A stretch of 64,000 nucleotides of DNA from Thermoplasmata archaeon. Its GTDB lineage: Archaea > Thermoplasmatota > Thermoplasmata > GCA-020350865. Each line of letters opens with the position of its first letter. Position 1 is the first letter of the stretch. Under the pieces are notes generated by a model. That model was not told the origin of the DNA and ran no database searches. It saw nothing but the letters and a program-made list of their open reading frames with translations. Positions 11,994-27,039 of the stretch are shown in pieces. A program made the translations under genes and the position numbers. Location: the NCBI GenBank assembly GCA_020348445.1, contig CP070751.1, positions 3,206,621-3,270,620 on the forward strand. The letters are read 5' to 3'.

Positions 11994-12061
11994 GTATCGA
12001 GGAGTATTTATTAAAAGTTTTTGAGTTGATTAAAAAGGTAAAAGGAGTGCGAGGATTGGGT

Positions 12062-12108
12062 GTGTCCGAGATTAAGATTGAAGTCGAATACTAACATAAC
12101 TCGTACAC
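12062..12108 (+). repeat. Conserved-loop hairpin, copy 1
   Basis: GTGTCCGAG / 29-nt loop ATTAAGA...ATAA / CTCGTACAC (8 of 9 pairs). Confidence 0.6.
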
Positions 12109-12190
12109 AAAGCCATTTTGCGTGTGTCCGAGATTAATAGATATTATTGGACCTAAACATTCCCGAATTTCATTATAACGAAGTTGAGGG

Positions 12191-12289
12191 TGCGAGGGCC
12201 TCGTGTTCAAGTTATGCTTATACTATGTTCGTATCTTAAGCTTGAACACAAAACCCACGCATCTTTGATTGTTGAATAATAATATACGA
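12191..12289 (-). repeat. 99-bp tRNA-Leu 3'-trailer element (contains hairpin copy 2 at 12203-12249)
   Basis: 24-nt loop, inverted tRNA end (TGCGTGGG), GTGTTCAAG/29-nt loop/CTTGAACAC, then direct copy CCCTCGCA 99 bp from the tRNA end. Confidence 0.75.
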
Positions 12290-12373
12290 TGCGAGGGTTG
12301 GGATTTGAACCCAAGAACCTCTATGGACAGGACCCTCAATCCTGCGCCGTTGACCAAGCTTAGCTACCCTCGC
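12290..12373 (-). tRNA. tRNA-Leu(GAG)
   Basis: Acceptor GCGAGGG/CCCTCGC-A, anticodon arm CAGGA-TTGAGGG-TCCTG, long variable arm, TTGGG-TTCAAAT-CCCAA; no intron, CCA not encoded. Confidence 0.96.
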
Positions 12374-12620
12374 ATTAAGGCGGATTACAGCTGATAGGAT
12401 AGCTAAGCTCGCTCCCGAAGACAAACCTATGGGTTGTTAAGGTGAAGGGTTGGATTCTCCAACCCTGGGCCGCAGGATATGTTTTTATTTCCGAGGGCTA
12501 AGATGGGGCCCTTGGCCGCATCTGGCGTAGCTACCCTCGCATTTGAGGTAGTGATTAACCCTAATGGATAAGGTTGTTTAAGTCAATTGCTGTTGGTTTT
12601 TGTATTGATTTCTGGGTGGG

Positions 12621-12668
12621 TGCCCTTAGGCTTAAGATATCAGCTCATAACTACATAACCTAAGGGCA
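12621..12668 (+). repeat. Conserved-loop hairpin, copy 3
   Basis: TGCCCTTAGG / 28-nt loop CTTAAGA...ATAA / CCTAAGGGCA (10-bp perfect stem). Confidence 0.7.
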
Positions 12669-12822
12669 AAGTGGACTATGAATTAGTCATATAGGAAATG
12701 GAATAGGCCACGATGGAGGGGGTAGTGGAAGGAGGGGAGTCTAGGGAGGAGTGGGCACTAGATGTTGTAAAGAAATCCAATACCACAAACTACAAATCGA
12801 TTTATCCCTATACGGGAAATTC

Positions 12823-13500
12823 ATGCCCGAGCAAGAAGAAAAGGAGCTGAAATTCGAGTTCATAAAGGCCTTCAGCTTACCTGATGCATGGTACCAGTGC
12901 CTAACCAGAATCTTTGAAAGCGGCCATGAATACACAATAGACAGGGGAAGCTATGAAGGTCAAAAACGCTTGGAATTTGATTACATAACAGTGCAGATCA
13001 CCCATCCATTTGTCAAGCCCCTGGTACCTGACATCCCAGAAGGACTTGGCGTTCCGCCTCCGTCCTCAATTGAGTATGTGGAGAAGTACCTGGAGAAGAT
13101 CATTACCTCTGTAAAAAGCCCTGAGGAGGATTATACATACGGAGAGGACCTGGAGAGGCAGATTCCCCATGTCATAGAGATGTATAAAAGAGATGGCTTT
13201 GGAACAAACCAGGCCTACATGGCCGTGGGAAATGCAGATTCCCTGCTTTTAAATGACCCACAATGCCTTAGGGGAGTGGACACCAGAATCAGGTACGGCA
13301 AGCTCAATTTCATGCTGTATTTCAGGTCCTGGGACCTGTGGGCGGGCTTTCCTTCTAATCTGGCCGCTCTTCAAATGGTAAAGGAGTACATGGCAAAGGA
13401 GGTAGGGGTTGAGGATGGGGAAATCATAGCCTCAAGCAAGGGCTTGCACCTCTACGACTACGCCTGGGATATGGCAAAAAAACGTCTTAGGAAAATCTAA
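12823..13500 (+). CDS. thyA: Thymidylate synthase (short archaeal-type ThyA)
   Basis: DPQCLR catalytic Cys, YFRSWDL, FPSNL, GLHLY motifs; start revised to ATG 12823. Confidence 0.85.
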   Translation: MPEQEEKELKFEFIKAFSLPDAWYQCLTRIFESGHEYTIDRGSYEGQKRLEFDYITVQITHPFVKPLVPDIPEGLGVPPPSSIEYVEKYLEKIITSVKSPEEDYTYGEDLERQIPHVIEMYKRDGFGTNQAYMAVGNADSLLLNDPQCLRGVDTRIRYGKLNFMLYFRSWDLWAGFPSNLAALQMVKEYMAKEVGVEDGEIIASSKGLHLYDYAWDMAKKRLRKI

Positions 13501-13518
13501 AATCCATTGAAAAAAGAT

Positions 13519-13555
13519 ACCTACTTGAAAACCGGATGCTGATTTCCAAGTAGGT
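13519..13555 (+). terminator. Inverted repeat after thyA, possible terminator
   Basis: ACCTACTTG...CAAGTAGGT 9-bp perfect stem 18 nt after the stop. Confidence 0.4.
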
Positions 13556-13894
13556 GCGGATTTTGCCCACGCCGCTCCTAAGTTCCTTTTATAACAAATA
13601 TGTGGGGTTGGGTACTCAGAAGTGCGATATTTGAGATTAATACTGTATCTACTACTTAACGGTTTTAGAACAATTTTTGAACATTATTAGGGATACTATC
13701 CCAAATTGTACAAGATTGTTAATGCAAGAATTAAGATTTTTTTTATCTCGGCACTTTTACAATTTCTTTTAAAAAGCCAGGCATGACTTTTTGGCTTCTA
13801 CTTTCATTTTCCTCTGCCTTTCATCTTTAATAATAATCCCCCCTATAGTAACCTTTGCCTACATAGAAGAAAAACGGTAGGAGGTGTAAAACGC

Positions 13895-14011
13895 ATGTTT
13901 ATTGTGCCCAAAAATAGAGGTTATGTCCTTCTGACATCTTTCCAGGCCTTAAGACATCTGGCCATGGAAACTGTTGAGGAGTACTACAATGGCTGGAAGC
14001 TGATTGAATAA
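13895..14011 (+). CDS. Small 38-aa protein
   Basis: GGAGGTG RBS 8 nt before ATG; MFIVPKNRGYVLLTSFQALRHLAMETVEEYYNGWKLIE*. Confidence 0.45.
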   Translation: MFIVPKNRGYVLLTSFQALRHLAMETVEEYYNGWKLIE

Positions 14012-14096
14012 TGATTTTAATTGGAATCATCTAGACTTATTTTCCGTAATATAATCTCATTATATTAGCTGAAAACACGGTTAAAACAAATTCCCC

Positions 14097-14855
14097 TCAA
14101 CTTGCTTTAAGGTCCTCTTCAAAAAAGCTCTCGTCCACAATGAGCACATTCTTTGGTGCGTGTGCGCCATCGATGAATCCGAACCAGTAGACCACGATAC
14201 CCTGCCCAAATATTTCTGTATATGCCTTAAGCTGTCTTTTGGTATTTCTTCGAATTTCAGTCTCGTCACCGAAGCTGGCTTTTGACTCGATCCATTTTAT
14301 GCTCATTCCATTTGTCTGAAGGGGTTTGGAAAGGAGTGCATCAGGAGTTTTTGAATACTGGCCCTTTAACTCGTTTTCAGTTTTATATTTCAAGTTCTGT
14401 TTGTCCAGCCACTCACAAAGCCTCCGCTCCCCCATTTTACCTCTTTTATACTGCATCTCGTTTCCCTCGGGGGAGTACACTATGTCTTTTTCAACAATCT
14501 CTGATATCTCCTTTCGCATACGGTTATCCTTGATATTTTCGGGATTTTTAACTAAATCCCAGAATCGTTTTCTTGTGATGTTGTTTTCCAAAAGGATCAG
14601 ATATGCCGTTAAAATAGGGGGAAATTTTAATTCCCGGGAAAGAGAAAGAAATGATCTACCCTCATTCCATTTTTTAAGGAGGCTCTTGGCACGATGTTTC
14701 ACCTTATAAAAGCGTCTTGTAGCCAATCTTACGGTCTTCTGGGTGTAGAGCACCAAAACCAATTCCCGATCCAGGCCGGTGTTCTTTGCTACTCGATCAA
14801 TATCACCCAGGTTATTGAGTTCATCGTACAATCGTTTGTATTCACTTTTTTTCAT
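14097..14855 (-). CDS. C15orf41/CDIN1-family (TPD domain) PD-(D/E)xK nuclease
   Basis: KTPDALL...WIESKASFG...VVYWFGF motifs. Confidence 0.85.
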   Translation of the reverse strand: MKKSEYKRLYDELNNLGDIDRVAKNTGLDRELVLVLYTQKTVRLATRRFYKVKHRAKSLLKKWNEGRSFLSLSRELKFPPILTAYLILLENNITRKRFWDLVKNPENIKDNRMRKEISEIVEKDIVYSPEGNEMQYKRGKMGERRLCEWLDKQNLKYKTENELKGQYSKTPDALLSKPLQTNGMSIKWIESKASFGDETEIRRNTKRQLKAYTEIFGQGIVVYWFGFIDGAHAPKNVLIVDESFFEEDLKAS

Positions 14856-15034
14856 CGAAACACTTTCCAAATAAAAAGTGCATTTGCCTATTTTCTGGTC
14901 GTAGATTTAGATATGAGCTTAACGTATAAGAATATTTCTGGTTATTTATCTTTCTAATCCTTTCACTCACCCCCCTCCCGCAAATATATAAGCAGACACA
15001 GCATTGGGGTTGTGAGACAATTCCTATATAGAAA

Positions 15035-16372
15035 ATGGAGGAATCTGAAATGAAAGAAAATGAAGATATTGCACCCCATGTTGAGGATATCGCAAGGGTG
15101 CTAGGTGACAAAGTTGATAAAGAAGAAATAGACAGGGAGTTGAAGCAGTACTTGAAAGAATACAGGATACCTCTTTCCACTGCAAAGCAGATGCTTGTAA
15201 AGAAGTACGGTGGTGCACCATCGAATCTGGGTCTTGGTGTATTCAAAACCGTAGAGCAGCTTACACCCAACGAGCCCAGCGTGGATTTGCTTTGTAGATT
15301 AATCTCAGTGAACCACAAAGATGTGGAAGTGGGCGGAGAGAAGAAACCCATAGTATATGGTATCCTTGGAGATCAAACAGCCAGTGTTCCGTTTACAGCG
15401 TGGGAGGTAGGTGATTGGCAGTTTCAGAAGGGGGATGTGGTTCGTGTCCGCAACGCCTACACAAAGGAATGGAAGGGGCAGCCACAACTTAATTTCGGCG
15501 AGAGAACGAATATAGAACGGGAATCAAAGGATGCACTGCCGAACTTCGCACCCACACCGATCTCGGATCCAAAGAAATATGAGGTCAAGGACCTTAAGGG
15601 GGGAATGAGCAACATATCCCTTGTTGCTAGGGTGCTTTTTGTTGAAAAGCGTAATGTGAATGTTGGTGGAGAGGAAAAAGCCGTTTTCTCGGGAATAATG
15701 GCAGATAAGAGCGGTAAGGTACAGTTCTCGGCATGGCACGACTTCGGGCTTTCAGAAGGTGATGTGATCAAAGTGGAAGGCGGCTATGTGAAAAACTGGC
15801 GGGGAATTCCCCAGTTCGGCTTCGATGAGAGAGTAAAATTTGAGGTTTTGGATACAGATAAGATGCCCCCACTAGACGAACTTGCAGAAAGACACGTCTA
15901 TCAGATAGGAGAACTCATCGATAGGGGCGGAGCAATCGATGTAGTCGTTGAGGGTGTTATAATTGACATCAAGAGTGGAAGCGGATTGATATTCAGGTGC
16001 CCGGAGTGCAAGCGAGTGCTCCAAAAAGGCGTTTGCAGAATCCACGGTGAGGTTGAGGGTAAAGCCGATTTAAGGATCAAGGCTGTGCTGGATGATGGAA
16101 CCGGCGCGTTAACTGCTGTATTGGGTAGAGACATAACTGAAAAGCTCATTGGAAAAGATGTAAAGGAATGCAGGGAAATCGCCAAGAAGGCCATGGATCA
16201 GAGTGTGATTGCGGATGATCTCAAGGACCTTCTTATCGCAACGCCCATCAGAATCTCGGGTGATGCGTCCTTCGATGATTTTGGCATCATGTTGATAGCA
16301 AAAGATGCACAAATGATGAGTATCGACGTGCAAAAAGAAGCAAAAACCATGCTCGATGAGCTGGAGGTGTGA
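15035..16372 (+). CDS. rpa: Replication protein A (multiple OB folds plus Zn finger)
   Basis: Repeated OB motifs (GILGDQTASVPFTAW, GIMADKSGKVQFSAW, LDDGTG) and CPEC..CRIH. Confidence 0.9.
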   Translation: MEESEMKENEDIAPHVEDIARVLGDKVDKEEIDRELKQYLKEYRIPLSTAKQMLVKKYGGAPSNLGLGVFKTVEQLTPNEPSVDLLCRLISVNHKDVEVGGEKKPIVYGILGDQTASVPFTAWEVGDWQFQKGDVVRVRNAYTKEWKGQPQLNFGERTNIERESKDALPNFAPTPISDPKKYEVKDLKGGMSNISLVARVLFVEKRNVNVGGEEKAVFSGIMADKSGKVQFSAWHDFGLSEGDVIKVEGGYVKNWRGIPQFGFDERVKFEVLDTDKMPPLDELAERHVYQIGELIDRGGAIDVVVEGVIIDIKSGSGLIFRCPECKRVLQKGVCRIHGEVEGKADLRIKAVLDDGTGALTAVLGRDITEKLIGKDVKECREIAKKAMDQSVIADDLKDLLIATPIRISGDASFDDFGIMLIAKDAQMMSIDVQKEAKTMLDELEV

Positions 16373-17256
16373 TCATGATCGCAAGAGAGGTGGCATGGCG
16401 TATTTTTGCAGGCGAATACAATTCATCCATCCATGTGGAATCAGGGGTGGGGGAAAGGGCACCCAGCTACGTTGTCACGCCCTTGGGAGCAAAGGTAAAT
16501 CGGCTGTTTGTTGTGGGTGTGGTAACGGATGTCGAGAATATCGGTACTGATACTGAACCCATGTGGAGGGCAAGACTCGCTGATCCCACAGGAGTATTCT
16601 TTCTCTCCGCCGGTCAATACCAACCAGAGGCTGCACAGATACTGTCCAAACTCAAACCTCCTAAGTTCGTTGCAGTTATAGGGAAAAGCCGTACCTATTC
16701 TCCAGAGGAGGGAGTGATATACGTTTCCATAAGGCCTGAAACCATCAAAGAGGTCAATTCAGAACTTAGGGATTTTTGGGTGTTGAACTCGTGCAGGAGC
16801 CTCAAGAAGAGGCTGGAAATCGTAAGCGAAGCAATGAAGATGGAAAAGCCAAGCATCGAGAACATAATCTCCCTTGGTGCGGACAGAAACCTTGCCGAGG
16901 GCATTATGTCAGCAATCGAGCACTACGATTACATCGACATCGCTAGGTTCAGCAGCATGCTCCAAGACGGTCTAAAACACCTTCTACCCGAGCATCAAGA
17001 AATCGACGGGGGAGAAGGAGTAGAAGCAGAAGAGCGGCAAAACAAGGAGTCCGAAGACAACATCGAGAACGAGGAGAAATTCCTTGAGATCATAGAAGAA
17101 TTGGACAAAGATGTTAAGGGCGCCGCCTGGGAGGAAATCATGGAAATGGCCCAAAAAAAGGGATTGAGTAGGATACAGATCGAGGAAACCACAAATTCCC
17201 TATTGGACAAGGGCCTGATATACGAACCTGTGCTTGGTAGGATTAAAAAGATATAG
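16369..17256 (+). CDS. RPA-associated/RPA2-like OB-fold protein with C-terminal winged helix
   Basis: REVAWRIFAGE, RLFVVGV, ADPTG; C-terminal LLDKGLIYEP; overlaps rpa. Confidence 0.85.
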   Translation: MIMIAREVAWRIFAGEYNSSIHVESGVGERAPSYVVTPLGAKVNRLFVVGVVTDVENIGTDTEPMWRARLADPTGVFFLSAGQYQPEAAQILSKLKPPKFVAVIGKSRTYSPEEGVIYVSIRPETIKEVNSELRDFWVLNSCRSLKKRLEIVSEAMKMEKPSIENIISLGADRNLAEGIMSAIEHYDYIDIARFSSMLQDGLKHLLPEHQEIDGGEGVEAEERQNKESEDNIENEEKFLEIIEELDKDVKGAAWEEIMEMAQKKGLSRIQIEETTNSLLDKGLIYEPVLGRIKKI

Positions 17257-17270
17257 TTAATAGAATAACA

Positions 17271-18194
17271 TTATGTCCGTGCAGCCCACTCCTTTAGAGG
17301 GAAGGTTTCACCGCAGCTTTTGCATTCTACACCATCAGTGAGTTCTTTTTCGCATGCATCGCATTTTTCCTTTCCGTATAAGGCCATGCTTCCACAGTGA
17401 GTACAAGGCAGAACATAGGCCTCTGAAGTGACACACCAACCAAAGTTCTGGATGTTATTGCATGATGGGCATGATTTCTTCTCTACTTTCAATTTGGTGC
17501 CGCATTCAGGGCACATGTTTCTTACCTTTGCCACTTTTTTCTTCAAGACCTTTGACTTATCGAAAATGAATTTCGTTGCAGGAGATTCTGGCAAATCTTC
17601 AACGGTCCAGTTCAGACTTCTGTCCGGAAGCCAAAGAATATAGACCAAAAGGAAGGCAATTATTGGTTCAAGTACCATATAAAATTGAATTTCTCCCCCA
17701 CCCGAATCCACCCAAAGAGACCAGCTGATAATTGATAAAACTGAAAAGGCCATGAAAAACATCACGCTGATACTCCAGAACCCAAGGGGTAGATATTCCT
17801 CTTTTTGAGCAACTGTATCTCGCGTCTTTTTTACGCTCTGGACGATGTGAAACGCCATATAAAACGCAGCTATTATGAAGAAGATACCAATCAAGATGGG
17901 AAGGGATATTCCAAAGACGTTTAGGTAGTCATACCAAAAAAAAAGGAGTATAACACCGAAAGCCGAGATACCATAACAGGCATATAATAGAAAACTGTAG
18001 GGCCAGGTATTTGGAAATGCGAAATATATGCAAAGAAGGGCACCGCCACCCAATGCAGCCCACAAAACAGCAGAAATAAGACCGGGCTGTAAACCAAAAT
18101 AAAGGGATAAAAGCACGCATACAAAGGTTGCTATAACCAGTTGATCTTCGGTTTTATCCAGGGAAAGAAATCCAGCTCCCTCAAACTTTACCAT
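17271..18194 (-). CDS. Multi-pass membrane protein with C-terminal multi-zinc-ribbon
   Basis: About 6 hydrophobic segments, then CPEC, CPSC, CTHC, CDAC, CKSC; probable start MVKFEG. Confidence 0.75.
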   Translation of the reverse strand: MVKFEGAGFLSLDKTEDQLVIATFVCVLLSLYFGLQPGLISAVLWAALGGGALLCIYFAFPNTWPYSFLLYACYGISAFGVILLFFWYDYLNVFGISLPILIGIFFIIAAFYMAFHIVQSVKKTRDTVAQKEEYLPLGFWSISVMFFMAFSVLSIISWSLWVDSGGGEIQFYMVLEPIIAFLLVYILWLPDRSLNWTVEDLPESPATKFIFDKSKVLKKKVAKVRNMCPECGTKLKVEKKSCPSCNNIQNFGWCVTSEAYVLPCTHCGSMALYGKEKCDACEKELTDGVECKSCGETFPLKEWAART

Positions 18195-18435
18195 TAATAT
18201 CGGCGAGTATACCGATAAGATTGTATTAATGAATTTCGGTGAAGGCACTTTTTACAAAAAAACTGGTGCCACTCAGATCGCCCATCACTCATCATCTTTC
18301 AGATCGGCGTTCTTCTTCATCGTGGCATAATACGTATGACTTAGAAGGAGATAGATTTTACTATGATGTAAAATGCATATAATCTCTGATTTTAAAACAT
18401 TGGGAGCAACCGAAAATATGGAGATGTTAAGAATG

Positions 18436-19323
18436 CTATTTGAGCTTCCCAGTCAAGCCACGCAGCTCCTCAAACTCGTCCTCCAGGATGTCCAAGGCAA
18501 AGGTCAAAGCTTCCTTCGCCGTCAAAGACCCGTCTGTCTCAAATTGGAAAATGAACTTCTTATCATCCCCTGATACCTTGATGGCACCAAGGGAGCAAAC
18601 CTCCTCGCATTTTTTGCACATGTTGCAATTTTCAATATCGGTGATCACTATTTTCTTGTCTTTTATGGCGAGAACGTTTTTTGGACAGTTGGAAATGCAA
18701 GATGCACCCATATCGCACTTATCATGGGAGATATTTATCTCAGGGTAGTACTGATAACCCACTGCCTGGGCTGTCTGCCATTTTGCATGTAGACTACCGG
18801 TGCCCAATTCTGCTGTTGCGTAAAGAAGCAAGGCCTGGCTTTTATTCAACTTCACAATCGGTATTTTTTTGTCGATTTGGAAGTGCTCTGCATATTTCTT
18901 TTCAGAAAGTCCTTCCACCTTTTGTACAACCAGTTGCAGTTCATCTGCGTAGACAGTGACACTTTTCTCGTCATCCTCTTCAGAAGGTCCCCTTTTATTG
19001 AGGGAGTACATGATGGTACAGTTTGGACAACCCTCTCCTTTGCACACACAGTCCTCTCTGAAAACGAAAACACCAAGATCCGTGGGAATTGGAATCATCC
19101 CCAGTCTATGGGAAATAATCTCGTCAAATAAGGGTGTCACACTCTCATACTCTTTGCCATGTTCATCTCTGATGGGCCCAAGATGAAATTCAACAGTAGA
19201 AATGGCCATCTTTGGAACATCGGCGATCAATGTCCTTCTCAATGCATTGACAACCGGAGGAGATATGTCAGAGATGATGAATTTGGCACTCGTGTCCGTT
19301 AGTTCTAAAATATCAAACTTCAT
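18436..19323 (-). CDS. rpoD: DNA-directed RNA polymerase subunit D (Rpo3) with ferredoxin-like domain
   Basis: NALRRTLIADVP, SHRLGMIP, HAKW, CxxC ferredoxin motifs. Confidence 0.96.
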   Translation of the reverse strand: MKFDILELTDTSAKFIISDISPPVVNALRRTLIADVPKMAISTVEFHLGPIRDEHGKEYESVTPLFDEIISHRLGMIPIPTDLGVFVFREDCVCKGEGCPNCTIMYSLNKRGPSEEDDEKSVTVYADELQLVVQKVEGLSEKKYAEHFQIDKKIPIVKLNKSQALLLYATAELGTGSLHAKWQTAQAVGYQYYPEINISHDKCDMGASCISNCPKNVLAIKDKKIVITDIENCNMCKKCEEVCSLGAIKVSGDDKKFIFQFETDGSLTAKEALTFALDILEDEFEELRGLTGKLK

Positions 19324-19405
19324 TGTATTTCCCCTTTATTATCACAAATCATTGAACGTCCTATCAATGATAAATATATTACTGTTTTTGCTCACACTCG
19401 GATCA

Positions 19406-19789
19406 TCAGACCCTTCTACCCCTTCGTCCACCTTTCTTTTTGGTGCCGTCATGGGGTATGGGAGTAACGTCCTCTATCCGGCCTATTCGAATCCCTGCCC
19501 TTGCCAGCGCCCGAATAGCCGCTTGTGCTCCCGGACCTGGTGAAGTTGATTTGTTGCCTCCAGGAGCTCTAATTTTAATGTGAATGTTGTTAATACCTTT
19601 TTCCTTGGCTGCATCGGCAGCTTTCTCAGCAGCCTTCATGGCGGCATAAGGTGATGCTTCGTCCTTTGCAGCCTTGACAACCATGCCGCCTGAGCAGCGG
19701 GTAATTGTCTCTGCACCAGTTAAATCAGTTATTGTGATGATGATATTGTTGAAGGAGGCATGGATATGGGCTATTCCCCACTTGACCAT
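19406..19789 (-). CDS. rps11: 30S ribosomal protein S11
   Basis: [35 protein letters not shown]. Confidence 0.98.
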
Positions 19790-20568
19790 TAGGCTTCACC
19801 CCCGGCCTTGGATTTTTCGCTATCGGGTTTGTCCTTTGGCTCCTTTCCCTTTCCCCCCTTCTTCTTGGGTTCCTCACCCTTCTTATCTTTCCCCTCGGAT
19901 TCCTTTTCTTTGCCCTTTACTTCCTCGGTTTTCTTCTTCTGGTCTTTTTCCCCAATTGCGCCCTTCTTTTGGGTTGGCTCGATCTCATCGACTTTCTCGG
20001 TTTCCTTCTGCATGGTAAATTCCCTTGATACTCTTTCTATATGCTCTGCTGTGGGTCTTGCAGGGTGTAGCTCGCTTGCAAGTGGTGAATATGGATTGTA
20101 GGCAATACTTGGCTCTTCGTTCTTTTTTACCAAATAACCAGGTACCGTAACCATACGCTCATTTACTGTGGCATGGCCGTGAACAATAAGCTGTCTCGCT
20201 TGTTTTGGCGTATATGCTAGGCCCTTTATATACACCAAGGTCTGCAATCTACGTTCCAGCATCCTCTCCACATCCAAGGCCAAAACATCATCCAAAGTTG
20301 CATCCTCCGGTAGGACTCCGAGATTGGCGAGTTTTTTCAAGAGGCCTTTCCTCTCCTTTTGTGCCTGCATATCACCCAATCGAAGTCTGGCGAGGAGGGT
20401 TCTTGCCTGTCTTCTGTAATTTCTAAGTTCGGACTGTGCCTTCCAGAGCTCGCGTTTGTTTTTAAGACCGTATTTCTTTAAAAGTTCGTTCTCCTCCTTG
20501 ATCCTGGTCCCTTGCCAGGGATGCGATGGTGTGTCATATTTTCTTCTTGAGAATTTTGGATCACCCAT
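19789..20568 (-). CDS. rps4: 30S ribosomal protein S4 with charged C-terminal extension
   Basis: [30 protein letters not shown]. Confidence 0.98.
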
Positions 20569-20613
20569 TTATTCACTTTTCCTTTAAGACCTACTTTGTC
20601 CCGATTCTCTTTT

Positions 20614-21138
20614 TTATTTGGCCTTCTGCGCTTTTTTCACCACTCCAACGGTCAGTCCTGTCCTACCATGGGCTTTGGTCCTCTGCCCCCTCACCTTCAG
20701 GCCTTTCTCATGCCGAATTCCCCGGTAACATCTGATTTTCTTCAGTATGTTGATGTCCTCTTGGCGTCGCATATCCATCTCTGAGCCCAGAAGATGTATA
20801 TCCTCCCCAGTCCAGGTATCCCTTTGCTTATTTAAAAGCCATCCCGGTGTGTGTTCCGATAGCTCCAAAACATATTCTTCTAATTTTTCTATATCTTGAT
20901 CTGATAAGTTGCCTATCTTCTCGTCCCTGGGTAATTTAGTTAGCTTGAGTACCACCTCTGCCACCCTATCCCCAACCCCTTTTACGGCAGTTAAGGCATG
21001 AACCACAGTCTTGTTACCATCCAAATCAGTGTTTGCTATTCTGACAATATATTTGAAGTCGTCTGGTTGATCCTCATCTTTCTTAGACTCCTTGACTATT
21101 TCTTTTGGAGCTGCGATTTTTTCATTTTCGTCTGCCAA
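20614..21138 (-). CDS. rps13: 30S ribosomal protein S13
   Basis: KYIVRIANTDLDG, YRGIRHEKGLKVRGQRTK; TTG start after GGAGG. Confidence 0.97.
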   Translation of the reverse strand: MADENEKIAAPKEIVKESKKDEDQPDDFKYIVRIANTDLDGNKTVVHALTAVKGVGDRVAEVVLKLTKLPRDEKIGNLSDQDIEKLEEYVLELSEHTPGWLLNKQRDTWTGEDIHLLGSEMDMRRQEDINILKKIRCYRGIRHEKGLKVRGQRTKAHGRTGLTVGVVKKAQKAK

Positions 21139-21465
21139 ACCTTATCCTCCAGGTATATAGAATTATTTGGAAGGCAAGATGCCCTTAAGTGATTTTTATT
21201 ATTTAAGGTTATTGGGATTGGATGTATCAGTTTCTTGAATATCATTGAATAAAACTCGTAATTACACCCATCACCTCCCCCAAGAAAGTGATTATCCAGT
21301 TATAACATATCTACTTTACGGTATTTGTTTGTCATGTGATCAATGAAAATCCCTTGAAAGAATATTCATCTATATAGATTCTTTATTAATATATAGTGAA
21401 TATATTCTATATAAGCTAATTAATTATACTGGGTACCCTTTTCTATCATTAGGTTTTGAGTCTTC

Positions 21466-22785
21466 ATGAACAATAAAGAAGATGATAATAATCCTGATTC
21501 AAAGGACGAGTGTATTGAGGATATAGTACTGAAATCTGAAGAACAGACTTCTCAACCAAAGAAAAAAGTCCGGGTCTTAAAGGACGATTACATCCCAAGA
21601 AAGCCAAAATCTAAGTTAAAAGCGGGCTGGCTGACACTGAACAGGAGAATCTCCCCATACCTTAACCACAGATACACAAGGGCGTTTATCCTCATTCTCT
21701 CCGTCTATTTCTTCATCGTGGGAATAAAAACCATGAGCGGCGGCTTCAAGGACATGGGTAAGGGATTCTCGGAAGGGTTGATAGAAAACGCTTCAAATCC
21801 TTTGGTGGGATTGTTCATTGGTATCTTTGCCACATCTGCAATTCAAAGTTCCTCTGCAACTACCTCCATGGTGGTGGGAATGGTGGCTGCAGAGCCTAGA
21901 TTTCTTCCCATGGCCATTCCAATCATCATAGGCGCCAACATTGGTACTTCTGTTACGAACATGATAGTCTCCTTTGGTCATATCACGAGAGGTGCCGAGT
22001 TTGAAAGAGCATTCTCAGGAGCTGTCGTACACGATTTCTTCAATGTGATTGCTGCAAGCATTCTCTTCCCTGTTGAAGTTATAACCCAGTATTTATGGGG
22101 GGGTAAAGGTCTTCTCCAAAGAGCCTCAATGTATCTTGCTGAGAACTTCGTAGGAACTGCCGGAGTAGGGAAATTCACACTTATCAATGATATCGTAAAT
22201 CCCATTGTAAATCCCATCAGAGATTTTTCCAAGGGTGCTGGTATACAGTGGCTTTCAGTACTTGTTGGAATCATAATCCTCTTTTTAGCCTTGAAGTTCA
22301 TAACAAGCTCCATGAGAATATTGATTGAGGGCAGATTACAGATCATCATCAGCAAGTACCTTTTTAAAACCACTTTAACCAGTTTCGGCTTCGGGATTCT
22401 ACTAACGGCATTGGTTCAGAGCAGCTCTATAACGACCTCCCTCGTGGTACCCCTGGTTGGTGGCGGAGTCTTGTCTGTTGAGCAGATTTTCCCTTACACC
22501 CTGGGAGCAAATGTGGGAACCACTGTTACTGCTCTTTTAGCTGCTTTCGTGGAATGGGGCAGCGCAAGCCAGGCCGGTAGTGCTGTTGCGGCATTGTCCA
22601 TTGCCTTTGCACATCTTTTGTTCAACGTGATCGCAATATGTCTTATTTATCCATTTAAAAAGCTGCCCATAGGCATGGCCAAAAGATTGGGGGGTTATGT
22701 GGTTAATAACAAAAAAATGGCGGTAATCTATATAATCGTTGCATTCTATATAATACCGGGATTGGTAATACTACTTCTGAGGTGA
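21466..22785 (+). CDS. Na/Pi cotransporter (NptA/NaPi-II family)
   Basis: Duplicated QSSS and GANIGT/GANVGT motifs. Confidence 0.92.
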   Translation: MNNKEDDNNPDSKDECIEDIVLKSEEQTSQPKKKVRVLKDDYIPRKPKSKLKAGWLTLNRRISPYLNHRYTRAFILILSVYFFIVGIKTMSGGFKDMGKGFSEGLIENASNPLVGLFIGIFATSAIQSSSATTSMVVGMVAAEPRFLPMAIPIIIGANIGTSVTNMIVSFGHITRGAEFERAFSGAVVHDFFNVIAASILFPVEVITQYLWGGKGLLQRASMYLAENFVGTAGVGKFTLINDIVNPIVNPIRDFSKGAGIQWLSVLVGIIILFLALKFITSSMRILIEGRLQIIISKYLFKTTLTSFGFGILLTALVQSSSITTSLVVPLVGGGVLSVEQIFPYTLGANVGTTVTALLAAFVEWGSASQAGSAVAALSIAFAHLLFNVIAICLIYPFKKLPIGMAKRLGGYVVNNKKMAVIYIIVAFYIIPGLVILLLR

Positions 22786-22792
22786 GAAAAGC

Positions 22793-23476
22793 ATGTCATT
22801 TAAAAGAATATACGATGCGTTGACAAAGGCCCCCCTCCTGGAAAAGGCGTATAATGATGCATGGAAGATGCACGCACTCGTAAAGGAGATGTTCGAGGAG
22901 TCCTCAAAATGTTTAATTGGGTGTGACATAAGTGTGGCAAAAAAACTCTCCTTGGAAGACAAGCGTATCAACAAGGCCGAGAAGAAAATCAGAAGGGAGG
23001 TTATGGAATACCTGGCAGTGACAACGGCTCCCAACCTCAGTGCCTCATTGATTTTAATAAGCATAGTTATTGATTATGAAAGAATTGGAGATCTCTGCAA
23101 GAACATAGCCCAGGTCTGCATAGAATATCCTGCAGATTTTGATGACGAAGAATATGTTAAGGATATTAACGAAATTAAAAATAACCTCTCGAAAATGTTT
23201 GATTTAACTTTAGTAGCAATAGAACAATCTGATACCGAGAAGGCCAAGGAAGCCATTGGAATACATGACAATATTAAGGAGATTCACAACAGTATAATTA
23301 AAAGATTGAACGAAGACGAGAAGATTTCCACAACCAATGCCATAAGTTATGCATTGTTAACAGGGTACTTCAGAAGGATCAATGCCCACCTAGCTAATAT
23401 TTGTACGGGTGTGCTTTACCCCTTCCCTGCTTTGGGCTTTGGATATGAGGTGGGTGGAGATTTGGATGGGCCGTAA
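22793..23476 (+). CDS. phoU: PhoU-domain phosphate uptake regulator
   Basis: DKRIN, DYERIGD, RRINAH helical repeats; follows the Na/Pi transporter. Confidence 0.85.
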   Translation: MSFKRIYDALTKAPLLEKAYNDAWKMHALVKEMFEESSKCLIGCDISVAKKLSLEDKRINKAEKKIRREVMEYLAVTTAPNLSASLILISIVIDYERIGDLCKNIAQVCIEYPADFDDEEYVKDINEIKNNLSKMFDLTLVAIEQSDTEKAKEAIGIHDNIKEIHNSIIKRLNEDEKISTTNAISYALLTGYFRRINAHLANICTGVLYPFPALGFGYEVGGDLDGP

Positions 23477-23494
23477 GCAGTGGTAGTGCCTTTT

Positions 23495-23851
23495 TCATCC
23501 TGATAAATTAAAATCATTGCCAAGATCCAGCTTTCCCTGACAAAGGACTTTTCCATCCAAAACCAGTGCAGGAAGTGTGTCGATCCCCAGCCTCCTCATT
23601 CTCATTCTCGCCTTGAATTTTTTCCATTTTACAATTGCCCTTATTCTGCTGTCACTTTGGGAGGGAATGACCATTTCATAACTTTCTTTGTTTTTCCACA
23701 CCAAGTGTTTTGCATACCTCAACATCTTCCTGCTTTGCTCAGTTTGTTTTGGTATGGGTTTTAAACAGCAGCTTCCTCCAGATGTTTTTGGAATAGTGAA
23801 AATAACCTCAGGAAAGAATTCCAATTTATGTTTGGATTTTGACATTTTCAA
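23495..23851 (-). CDS. Small thioredoxin-like protein with vicinal CC motif
   Basis: GGSCC and C-terminal TLPALVLDGKV; downstream of the DsbD/TlpA genes. Confidence 0.55.
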   Translation of the reverse strand: MKMSKSKHKLEFFPEVIFTIPKTSGGSCCLKPIPKQTEQSRKMLRYAKHLVWKNKESYEMVIPSQSDSRIRAIVKWKKFKARMRMRRLGIDTLPALVLDGKVLCQGKLDLGNDFNLSG

Positions 23852-23961
23852 TCACTGATTTTGTTGTAATGTTAATTAATTAATTCTTCATATATATTGA
23901 TTTATTGTATTACAATTCATGTAAATTATCAGAATTTATTTTACAAATGTAATTCATTCCA

Positions 23962-25773
23962 TTATAAACTCGCGGTAGAAACATAAATCCATACAAGATA
24001 TATTCCAACTACGATCAAAACAGCCCCACTTATTTTCTTAATGACTTCTGTGTACTGGGATAATTTCTGGGCTGCACCGGCTCCGAAATGGGCTATGGCA
24101 ATGGTAATACTTATCATTAATACGGCTGCCACTAGATTATAGAGAATTAGAACAGACAATCCAAATATTAATCCAGCATTCAATGCAGCCACTAAAACTG
24201 CAATAAAAATGGGAGCAGTGCACCCCGCAGCAGCGGCCCCATATCCTAAACCGTATAAGAACAATCCTCCATAGAATCCCGATTCTCCTCCAGTGGTAGT
24301 GGGATCGCTAGATTCACTGACCTCTCCATCCTTGGATTTTTTCTGAAACTTGCTTCGCAGCTTTGCCCAAAAGGCCTGAATCGGTCGTATGATCTTCCAG
24401 TATTGAAAGGGTGTGAGTAGAAGTCCTCCCAGTACTATCAGGATGATTCCCACAATAAGTCCAAAAACAGCCACTCCCTCCAGTATGGAAGTTCCAGCAA
24501 GGATAACTACTATGCCTAAAAGTAAACTCACGATTATTATACCAGCAGCCGAGATGGTCCCAGCCATTGCAGCTCTTCGCAGTGGTATCTTTCCCCCTTC
24601 CTCGGCTCCTTTTTTGAGATAGTATGCTAGATATCCCGGAAGCATGGGAAATGCACAGGGAGAGAAGAAGAATGCAAATCCAGCTAAAATTGCCAGGGAA
24701 ACATAACTTGCCTCCTGAATGGCAATTGCCTCAGCTTCACCTGATATTGCATCATCAAGTTCTTTTTTCAGGGTGCTTACATCTTCGACTTCGCCTTCGA
24801 ATGTGGCATAACCATCACCATTGATGATTATGATCTTTGGAATGAGTTCAGCACGGTATTTGAGAATCAGATCATCAGTATCCCGTGCAATGGCCCAATC
24901 GATATTGTGGGAATCCCTGTAATCCTGGAGCATCCCGTCTGTATCATCCACCAAGATATCCACACTTATAAAAACAACTTCATCTTTATAATCCGGATAT
25001 ATCTCCTTAAGGTTCTTCTCAACGATTTTACATCCTTTGCAGGGAATGGACATCATGTCCAATATAACGACCTTTCCCCTAAAATCCGTGAGATTGAAAG
25101 TGTTGCCGTCTATGTCAGTCAATGTGAATCCAGGTGCCTCAGTAACCTCACTCGGGCTGAGGAAAAGTACACCCATTACAATAAAAATCAAGATAAAGAT
25201 AACTAAAATTATAGCTTGCATCTTCTTATTCATTGGTATAGTTTTATCCTTCCTCTTGACGTGTTTTACAACCAAGAACACAAGGATAACTACAAGAATG
25301 ACTATAAGAACCTGCATGGCCAAATTACTTTCAGTTGGACAGGGTGGAGCTTCACCGCCCTCAAGGCTCGTGTTTATATCTATGTAATGATAATCTTCCC
25401 CTCCTAAAGGTGAATATTCTTTACTGCCATCATCATATGTTACTGTGATGTTTATGCCAAGTAATGTTACCCCTTCAAGATCCCTTGTTATAATAGTAGA
25501 ATAAGTGTTGTTCTCCCCCAGGGTTAAATTGTGTAAATCAGGATAACATCCCTCTTCGGGTTCGATTTGACAGTACAGCATATTGACCTTTGTAATATTT
25601 GATGTGTCATTTACCTGTACATACACGGTAATCTCATCATATGAAAATGGTTTTTCTGGATAATAGGTAACGCTCCTAATATTTGATTCGGCACTCACAG
25701 ATGGAAGGAATGACAGGGAAATCATTAAAATTATGAAGACCCAAAACGGCACTAACTTTTTTACACAACTCAC
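23962..25773 (-). CDS. Fusion: secreted Ig-like domain, TlpA redoxin and CcdA/DsbD membrane domain
   Basis: APGFTLTDIDG, PCKGC, FFSPCAFPMLPGY, AAGCTAPIF. Confidence 0.85.
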   Translation of the reverse strand: MSCVKKLVPFWVFIILMISLSFLPSVSAESNIRSVTYYPEKPFSYDEITVYVQVNDTSNITKVNMLYCQIEPEEGCYPDLHNLTLGENNTYSTIITRDLEGVTLLGINITVTYDDGSKEYSPLGGEDYHYIDINTSLEGGEAPPCPTESNLAMQVLIVILVVILVFLVVKHVKRKDKTIPMNKKMQAIILVIFILIFIVMGVLFLSPSEVTEAPGFTLTDIDGNTFNLTDFRGKVVILDMMSIPCKGCKIVEKNLKEIYPDYKDEVVFISVDILVDDTDGMLQDYRDSHNIDWAIARDTDDLILKYRAELIPKIIIINGDGYATFEGEVEDVSTLKKELDDAISGEAEAIAIQEASYVSLAILAGFAFFFSPCAFPMLPGYLAYYLKKGAEEGGKIPLRRAAMAGTISAAGIIIVSLLLGIVVILAGTSILEGVAVFGLIVGIILIVLGGLLLTPFQYWKIIRPIQAFWAKLRSKFQKKSKDGEVSESSDPTTTGGESGFYGGLFLYGLGYGAAAAGCTAPIFIAVLVAALNAGLIFGLSVLILYNLVAAVLMISITIAIAHFGAGAAQKLSQYTEVIKKISGAVLIVVGIYLVWIYVSTASL

Positions 25774-25782
25774 TTTCGCACC

Positions 25783-26340
25783 TCAAATAAGTCTCTCTAC
25801 CTCTTTCGATAGGGTCTGGAAAGACGTTTCGCCCTCATGATAATGCCTGATTATACCCTCTCTATCTATGATTACTATGGTTGGAGTATATCTTACGTTG
25901 TATTTATTTTCTACATCGTCCGTGTCTCTTGCAAAAGTCCAATTATCACCGTATTTTTCGCGAAAAGTGCTCAAATCTTCGTTTGAATCGCTGTTATCAA
26001 TGGATATTGTCATAATAACCAATTCTTCAGAAGGGTATCTGTTATATACACCTTTTAGATGCTCCATTTCGCTGATACAGGGAGGACATGTGGTGGTCAT
26101 GATATCCAATATTATGACCTTACCGAAATTGTCTGAAAGTTTAATCTCTTCTCCATCAATACTCTTCAGATTGAAATTAGGAGCTTTTTCTCCCACAAGA
26201 TCTATAAAAAAAGGGCGTATCAATATATAAGCCAAAACGATGATTAGAATGATCACGACTATTATTATGATATTCCCTTTTAAAAACTGCTTTACCTTGT
26301 TGGCTTTTAAATTCTCTTTATCAGGCTCCTTTTCATCCAA
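25783..26340 (-). CDS. Membrane-anchored TlpA-family redoxin
   Basis: APNFNLKSIDG, TTCPPC, YTPTIVIID. Confidence 0.9.
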   Translation of the reverse strand: MDEKEPDKENLKANKVKQFLKGNIIIIVVIILIIVLAYILIRPFFIDLVGEKAPNFNLKSIDGEEIKLSDNFGKVIILDIMTTTCPPCISEMEHLKGVYNRYPSEELVIMTISIDNSDSNEDLSTFREKYGDNWTFARDTDDVENKYNVRYTPTIVIIDREGIIRHYHEGETSFQTLSKEVERLI

Positions 26341-26529
26341 GAATGAGCACCTAAGGGATAAAAACGCTGTTTATTGGATATAAGTTTTACCTAGGTAAAA
26401 AAATCCCAAATGATTATCAGCCTAGATAACAACAAGGTATAATTTATCTACTCAGAGTTATATAGGAAAAACATTATAGCCAATGCTCTCAGGGATTTGG
26501 GGCCCAAGAGCGTAAAAGAAGATGAGGAC

Positions 26530-26685
26530 ATGACTTCACTAATACCTCATGGAAAGGAAGTTTCTGTGGTGCACCTCAATTCAGACTGGGGTTACTTGGC
26601 TTATATTGAGAAATGTTTAGATAAACACGGAGAGACTACCTACAAGGTTGTTAGAGTACCCTTGGAAGATGGATTTAAAAAATAA
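26530..26685 (+). CDS. Possible small hypothetical protein (51 aa)
   Basis: GAGG RBS before ATG 26530; no recognisable motif. Confidence 0.3.
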   Translation: MTSLIPHGKEVSVVHLNSDWGYLAYIEKCLDKHGETTYKVVRVPLEDGFKK

Positions 26686-26865
26686 CAGAATGTGAATCCA
26701 TAATAATAACCGTTTTTACGATTTTTTCTTTTAATCTGGAGTTTAAATATCACTATCATTTCGACAGTAATGGGCAATTTGGGGCCTGATATCTTTATTA
26801 TGGGAATTTCCTGTCCTAAACAACCCGCAATCATTTTATTGTACAATTTCCTTAAACCTCAATGT

Positions 26866-26943
26866 GGCCCAGTGGGGTAGCTTGGTCGATCCTATGGCGT
26901 TCGGGACGCTGTGACTCCGATTCAAATTCGGACTGGGCCACCA
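26866..26943 (+). tRNA. tRNA-Pro(CGG)
   Basis: Acceptor GGCCCAG/CTGGGCC-A-CCA, anticodon arm TGGCG-TTCGGGA-CGCTG, T arm TCCGA-TTCAAAT-TCGGA. Confidence 0.93.
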
Positions 26944-27039
26944 TTCTAATTTTTATACAATTATATTCATGGTGGCCCATTCGTGTTTTGGCTTAAGACC
27001 CAAGCAAATGATAGTATAACCAAAACACGGACTGGGCCA
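26941..27039 (+). repeat. 99-bp tRNA-Pro 3'-trailer element (contains hairpin copy 4 at 26982-27029)
   Basis: 24-nt loop, inverted tRNA end (ATGGTGGCCCA), CGTGTTTTGG/28-nt loop/CCAAAACACG, direct copy CGGACTGGGCCA 99 bp from the tRNA end. Confidence 0.75.

Follow-up and report, generated by a model that had tools for sequence, protein, structure and literature searches.

Fold-back repeats with arms copied from the adjacent tRNA gene in a genus of Thermoplasmata

Results

The DNA analysed here, a window of 64,000 nt within the 5.16-Mb single-contig assembly of a Thermoplasmata archaeon (GCA_020348445.1, contig CP070751.1; 41.5% G+C), contains four hairpins at 12062–12108 (+), 12203–12249 (−), 12621–12668 (+) and 26982–27029 (+), positioned as given in a first-pass annotation and with the loops quoted there. 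These hairpins are the cores of a non-coding fold-back repeat family that has so far been found only in this genus of uncultured archaea. Three of the four are nested in larger modules, with outer arms that reproduce the end of the adjacent tRNA gene, and folding is selected on one strand only, the strand that reads CTTAAGA...ATAA, which is antisense to the tRNA in 86 of 90 tRNA-linked copies. We put at about one in two the probability that this is a fold-back family that acts as a single-stranded DNA hairpin, is used by a strand-specific process and derives its arms from the neighbouring tRNA gene.

To define the family we used the window genome (G000), four congeners (G001, G002, G003 and G004, which include the two public metagenome-assembled genomes (MAGs) Methanomassiliicoccales archaeon bin396, CP070739.1, and Thermoplasmata archaeon SCS1bin.31) and an outgroup of 36 other Thermoplasmata genomes. 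A scan that required the loop signature, a closing G-C pair and a 9-bp stem in which up to two positions could mismatch, whatever the type, recovered 51 copies in G000 and none when the 3′ arm was taken from 200 nt away. The loop pattern alone gave 28–45 matches per congener and the reversed pattern 1–5. Aligning 41 copies gave a structure with 99% pairing, a percentage that is no independent evidence because the aligned copies were selected by pairing, and both sides change in eight of 12 pairs. The closing G-C pair and the TTA/TAA extension are invariant in this alignment, as is the presence of one extrahelical base, the identity of which varies. The inner hairpin consists of a 9–10-bp stem, the extrahelical base, the TTA/TAA pairing and a loop of ~22 nt with fixed ends and a free middle. 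The stems that differ yet stay paired, the closing G-C and a possible single extrahelical base had all been noted in the first-pass annotation from four copies, and they hold across the alignment; its statement that the window has no further copies also stands, the only addition being a truncated remnant at 12122–12137.

A covariance model, R1, built from the 41-copy alignment matched 64 sites in G000 and 25–48 in each of the four congeners, while the 36 other Thermoplasmata genomes gave one marginal match only (E 0.003). Searches of Rfam 15, with gathering and permissive thresholds, matched tRNA alone, the remaining hits having E>2. Scans of viral (17 hits) and metagenome (80 loci examined) sequences with the commonest arm-plus-loop word returned matches that the model scores as chance only. 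Literature searches yielded no description of the family, only the general observation that integrated elements leave tRNA gene fragments behind (PMC9897764). The first-pass annotation had named a known Rfam family or an ordinary promoter as findings that would undo its proposal, and neither was found. Ordinary archaeal promoters were rejected on position, as TATA-like words are most frequent between −40 and −30 relative to the ATG while TTAAGA and CTTAAGA have no positional peak. We also discarded two structured RNA motifs on geometry. A kink-turn has a 3-nt bulge beside tandem G·A pairs and a bulge-helix-bulge motif has two 3-nt bulges 4 bp apart; here, tandem G·A lies within a continuous helix and the sole bulge is 1 nt.

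The link to tRNA genes, which were called with ARAGORN, is strong: in G000, 27 hairpin copies lie at most 450 nt downstream of a tRNA gene, an association that had been suspected from the window alone. Read in the direction of the tRNA, a module consists of a spacer of ~24 nt that is AT-rich and contains a T-run, the final 10–14 bases of the host tRNA gene and 1–4 trailer bases in inverted copy, a junction, the hairpin, a direct copy of the tRNA end and a second T-run. The junction between the inner and outer helices is a 2×2 or 3×3 purine-purine opposition. Modules occur in arrays of 1–3 repeats with a period near 98 nt, AT-rich, TATA-like spacers border each unit, and the direct copy is bordered by a T-loop-like arm and a conserved spacer, as at the genuine tRNA end. 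The orientation is opposite to the tRNA in 24 of the 27 linked copies of G000 and in 62 of 63 downstream copies of the congeners.

The arms follow the host gene closely. The inverted copy is closer to the tRNA's own end than to the direct copy of its module (11.3 vs 8.8 of 14), and the arms track the sequence differences between the tRNA-Pro genes of G000 and G001. In particular, the G001 tRNA-Pro gene has a non-CCA tail and both module copies carry that tail. The copies therefore match the post-discriminator bases of the gene and not CCA, which excludes reverse transcription primed by mature tRNA as their source. The loop middle, which was considered as a guide to the host tRNA, shows no excess of identity or complementarity to it (5.5 vs 5.1 nt).

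Because the detection of copies is independent of mismatch type, the non-canonical positions of the stems can be compared between the strands. Read on the CTTAAGA...ATAA strand, 89 congener hairpins contain 35 G·A, 22 G·T, seven A·C and one C·T, and the G000 hairpins contain 14 G·A, 12 G·T, two A·C and two C·T. When each of 88 distinct stems is counted once, G·A is present in 21 against C·T in three (p 3e-4) and G·T in 28 against A·C in eight (p 1e-3). A tandem 5′-GA/3′-AG is retained in 17 hairpins, including the tRNA-Pro ortholog in G003, amid neighbouring pairs that covary. The junction places G on the 5′ side opposite A or G on the 3′ side, and the outer helices contain 26 G·A and six C·T. 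On the tRNA-sense strand all these positions would read pyrimidine-pyrimidine or A·C. The abundance of G·A, G·T and G·G matches the stability order of DNA mismatches. Thus, the one-sided mismatches, the junctions and the outer helices together demonstrate that the structure is selected on the tRNA-antisense strand. The modules on the 5′ side of tRNA genes lean to the same strand, but these copies are too closely related, and their detection is too noisy, for them to carry weight.

In the window, the complete module behind tRNA-Leu(GAG) (gene at 12288–12374, −) lies at 12191–12260 (−), separated from the tRNA 3′ end by an AT-rich spacer at 12261–12287 (−). It comprises the inverted copy (12254–12260), hairpin copy 2 (12203–12249, arms 12203–12211/12241–12249) and the direct copy (12191–12199), and folds as a long rod (z −5.0). 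The tRNA-Pro(CGG) gene at 26866–26943 (+), which encodes its CCA, is followed by a module at 26944–27039 (+) that again folds as a long rod (z −5.8) and is made up of a spacer (26944–26969), the inverted copy (26970–26979), hairpin copy 4 (26982–27029, arms 26982–26991/27020–27029) and the direct copy (27030–27039). Copies 2 and 4 break the orientation rule of the family; in both, the loop alone is flipped, the change being confined to the inner hairpin with the flanking arms in normal order.

Copy 1 (12062–12108, +; arms 12062–12070/12100–12108) has a 9-bp stem with one C·T mismatch and a 29-nt loop, matches the R1 model and has the standard orientation, with its CTTAAGA-type strand antisense to tRNA-Leu. 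Its module is decayed throughout (fold z −0.6). The distal arm at 12048–12060 (−) is a decayed direct copy of the tRNA-Leu 3′ end that retains 12 of 13 bases, and the hairpin is followed at 12109–12137 (+) by a conserved linker and a truncated second hairpin of which only the 5′ arm and the loop start are left, the remnant at 12122–12137 noted above. The module was a double-hairpin one like that behind tRNA-Leu(TAA), and copy 1 is the hairpin that survives. In the G001 ortholog of window positions 12040–12110, a proline-rich repeat open reading frame (ORF) replaces the 5′ arm of this hairpin and stops at a codon formed inside the conserved loop start.

The opposite side of tRNA-Leu(GAG) carries a 5′-side module (12375–12545, −) that contains a spacer and an inverted and a distal direct copy of the first 13–14 bases of the tRNA, and is bounded by direct copies of these bases. 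The modules at this locus differ among the congeners: the gene is flanked by modules on either side in G000, by 3′ modules alone in G001 and, in G004, by a 5′ module alone, which is shorter. On the far side of the distal 5′ copy, the G000 sequence has its ortholog in the DNA that directly adjoins the tRNA in G001, and a promoter-like box is equally distant in the two. This box is conserved at ~12585–12592, so that the 5′ module of G000 lies between it and the tRNA gene; from this arrangement, the module should be part of a pre-tRNA leader of ~170 nt. At tRNA-Pro(CGG), one or two modules are present in all five species and their arm differences exactly mirror the differences between the tRNA genes. 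The orthologs of the flipped copies have the standard orientation, in G001 for copy 2 and in four congeners for the tRNA-Pro copy. Hence modules are gained, lost, tandem-amplified and loop-flipped between congeners at the DNA level.

The first-pass annotation had placed all four hairpins near tRNAs. This holds for the three copies in the modules behind tRNA-Leu and tRNA-Pro; copy 3 (12621–12668, arms 12621–12630/12659–12668) belongs to a different form of the family. Its stem is common to six other copies in G000, all far from any ARAGORN tRNA, and in each of these seven cases the hairpin is part of a composite unit, a conserved block of ~120 nt in intergenic DNA that also contains a second hairpin. 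In the window this unit occupies 12611–12724 (+); the second hairpin (12671–12711) is of the type found upstream of tRNA genes and lies on the same strand as copy 3. The whole unit is missing from the orthologous site in G001, G002 and G004, and the closeness of copy 3 to tRNA-Leu is therefore coincidental. The composite unit is the dispersed form of the family, resembling a miniature inverted-repeat transposable element, and in it both core types stand on one strand with no tRNA between them.

A co-oriented gene start follows the composite unit in five of seven cases in G000, at 180–220 nt, and in about six of nine in G002, with an overall range of 145–264 nt. The genes after the G000 units encode archease, Dph5, Taw3, an SbcD-like phosphoesterase and the ThyA-like protein of the window. 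A regulon for tRNA biogenesis was considered and dropped, as the G002 units precede genes for a TrkA channel, an EMC3/YidC-like protein and a PfkB kinase. Six G002 loci (L166, L167, L181, L183, L191 and L192) form a sister subfamily with a fixed tandem G·A in the stem and a different second half, and the G003 ortholog of the unit upstream of Dph5 has a single G·A. The G002 and G003 units trace a transition from Watson-Crick pairs to G·A inside one subfamily. The window's ThyA-like gene (12823–13500, +) is of methanogen type and its closest relatives outside the genus are from Deltaproteobacteria/Desulfobacterales MAGs, at 61–67% identity; it may be a cross-domain transfer.

Other features of the G000 assembly concern its tRNA genes and its integrity. 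At ~1.13, 1.68, 1.78, 1.86, 1.94 and 2.41 Mb of contig C1 there are bacterial-looking tRNA genes with encoded CCA that are without modules, and a RAYT-like, bacterial-style Y1+HTH gene is located at ~1,866 kb. The assembly measures 5.16 Mb, compared with 2.3–3.7 Mb in the congeners, and its estimated completeness is 81.66%. Together these features may reflect foreign or mis-joined DNA in the assembly. A dense one-strand array of ~25 tRNA genes, many of them oddly featured and all lacking hairpin modules, is present at G000:C1:4640570–4643566 and looks like a tRNA island of the mobile-element or virus type.

Discussion

The reading that we favour is that the active form of the hairpin would be single-stranded DNA, in the manner of REP/RAYT elements, the ends of IS200/IS605 elements or attC sites. 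Its user would be a strand-specific recombination or replication-linked process carried out by a putative enzyme, and gene conversion from the adjacent tRNA end, together with hairpin-templated repair, would keep the arms the same as the tRNA. A substrate of the attC or HUH type had been raised in the first-pass annotation alongside a protein-binding RNA motif. The mismatch spectrum bears out the folding of a single strand, but it also fits an RNA motif, and the proposed tie to an enzyme did not materialise.

Several results weigh against our reading. The integron integrase model (TIGR02249) gave no hit above its cut-off in any of the 41 genomes, nor one at E≤1e-5 in G000. Y1/HUH domains (PF01797) are encoded in all five genomes of the genus and also in 13 of the 36 relatives that lack the hairpin, which leaves no specific association, and there is no R1 hairpin beside the Y1 genes examined; the Y1+DnaA_C genes that were found have a common bacterial-type architecture. 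The GC skew of G000 shows no replichore signal to which replication could be linked, and the outcome of a minimum-free-energy comparison of the two strands varies with the parameters. No pair of empty and filled sites with sharp boundaries was recovered that would show transposition, and we know of no mechanism that yields both an inverted and a direct copy of its target. Finally, the tolerance of G·U and G·A also fits RNA.

This last point is where the principal alternative begins, a reading that we take seriously and yet consider unlikely. It holds that the hairpins are small structured RNAs transcribed from the tRNA-antisense strand (or, for the composite units, the upstream region of the downstream gene), in which a protein binds the bulged hairpin and the fixed loop ends while the arms form a tRNA-specific, acceptor-like helix. 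The one-sided tolerance of G·U and G·A, the fixed orientation relative to the tRNA, the AT-rich, TATA-like spacers that flank the units and the co-orientation of composite units with the gene downstream would all be expected from such RNAs. They are harder to reconcile with the excess of G·A over G·U and the presence of G·G, which are unusual in plain RNA helices, and with the toleration of loop flips. Moreover, no T-run terminator lies on the antisense strand between module and antisense tRNA, the T-runs being on the sense strand; there is no visible promoter logic; neither module of the window faces a convergent gene; and Rfam has no match. A role in the sense transcript, with the modules serving as trailer or leader structures of the pre-tRNA, insulating tRNA genes that are highly transcribed or giving them a back-up terminator, is scarcely probable. 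It would account for the T-run after each direct copy, as after the tRNA itself, and for the location of the tRNA-Leu 5′ module between promoter-like box and tRNA, where it is expected in the leader. On the sense strand, however, the non-canonical positions become C·U, A·C and C·C, the least stable choices, and this bias argues against a sense-RNA terminator or a tRNA mimic; modules are also absent from orthologous tRNAs in congeners and are thus dispensable.

Two further explanations operate on DNA. If the modules were neutral by-products of template switching by replication at palindromes, with neither a trans-acting factor nor a function, the chain of alternating palindromes could itself drive slippage, tandem growth and loop inversion. 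We regard this as improbable: across 140 copies from five species, neither the closing pair, the bulge nor the ends of the loop vary, even though loop middles drift, and the strand-specific mismatches and the preserved tandem G·A point to selection or drive on a defined structure. Integrase scars, that is, partial tRNA duplications of the attL/attR kind shrunk to ~100 nt, are more improbable again. Such scars would explain the direct copy of the tRNA end at the distal border and the orthology, past the distal 5′ copy, of the G000 flank to the tRNA-proximal flank of G001, and tRNA fragments from integrated elements are common in archaea (PMC9897764). Integration, in contrast, yields no inverted copy, no conserved hairpin, no arrays of ~98-nt period and no 5′-end modules. 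One and the same core stands behind more than 25 different tRNAs. The genes around the window modules are ordinary ones, and integrase remnants were not seen nearby.

Comparison with known systems leads back to single-stranded DNA hairpins. REP, BIME and REPIN elements (mobilised by RAYT, a Y1 HUH protein) and palindromes derived from IS200/IS605 are, like the modules, short, non-coding, imperfect intergenic palindromes present in many copies, in tandem or paired, with an orientation bias, a conserved bulge and mismatches, and a hairpin that forms on one strand. The family shares the imperfect one-strand intergenic palindrome but not a distribution that matches Y1 HUH genes: REPs neither contain copies of the end of a neighbouring gene nor are tied to tRNA genes, whereas here no dedicated single-copy RAYT-like gene is linked to the family and the loop is 28–29 nt with fixed ends. 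The attC sites, including those of archaeal integrons, have in common with the modules a structure conserved over sequence, two helices with an unpaired junction, an extrahelical base, a variable terminal loop and tandem arrays, and in attC one strand recombines. They differ in that IntI was not found here and the units are separated by spacers of ~24 nt only, with no cassette ORFs; in that the R and L boxes of attC are at the base of the hairpin, whereas the conserved bases here are at the apex, beside the loop; and in that the outer helix here is copied from the tRNA gene.

With the attL/attR duplications of tRNA genes (PMC9897764) the modules share a direct repeat of the tRNA end at the far border and an intact tRNA gene; they differ in being gene-less inserts of ~100 nt with an extra inverted copy, at both tRNA ends and in arrays. 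A direct repeat is thus present but is surrounded by ordinary genes, and the inverted copy, the arrays and the 5′-side modules set the family apart from integrase scars.

Escherichia coli has tRNA-linked repeats that are short, contain a tRNA 3′ end and lie downstream of the gene concerned. The modules resemble them in the downstream copy of the tRNA 3′ end; the E. coli repeats are direct only and lack the hairpin core, the inverted copy and a 5′-side counterpart. The family works most like single-strand hairpins of the REP and attC type, yet it departs from both, as it has no matching enzyme and its boxes are laid out differently.

It is possible, though we offer this tentatively, that the family constitutes a new class, a strand-specific single-stranded DNA element directed at the 5′ as well as the 3′ end of tRNA genes, which templates its arms anew from the host gene and has two distinct end hairpins on one strand that can bracket a tRNA or stand alone as a two-hairpin unit. 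We see a similar, modest but real chance that the re-templating of the arms reflects a new mechanism. If true, the new class would imply a recombination or replication-coupled copying mechanism, and an enzyme, that have yet to be described. On the practical side, many copies of the family sit at contig ends and the repeats accordingly break assemblies, and, where modules intervene, a long structured leader is predicted between promoter and tRNA gene.

Genes for tRNAs are classic landing sites for mobile DNA. To our knowledge, mobile DNA always arrives there by means of integrases, which leave direct repeats only. In the five sampled genomes of this genus, most tRNA genes bear gene-less hairpin modules that take their arms from the tRNA gene itself. 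Should an enzyme or a process linked to replication be behind these modules, DNA would here be copied and targeted in a new way, through local templating.

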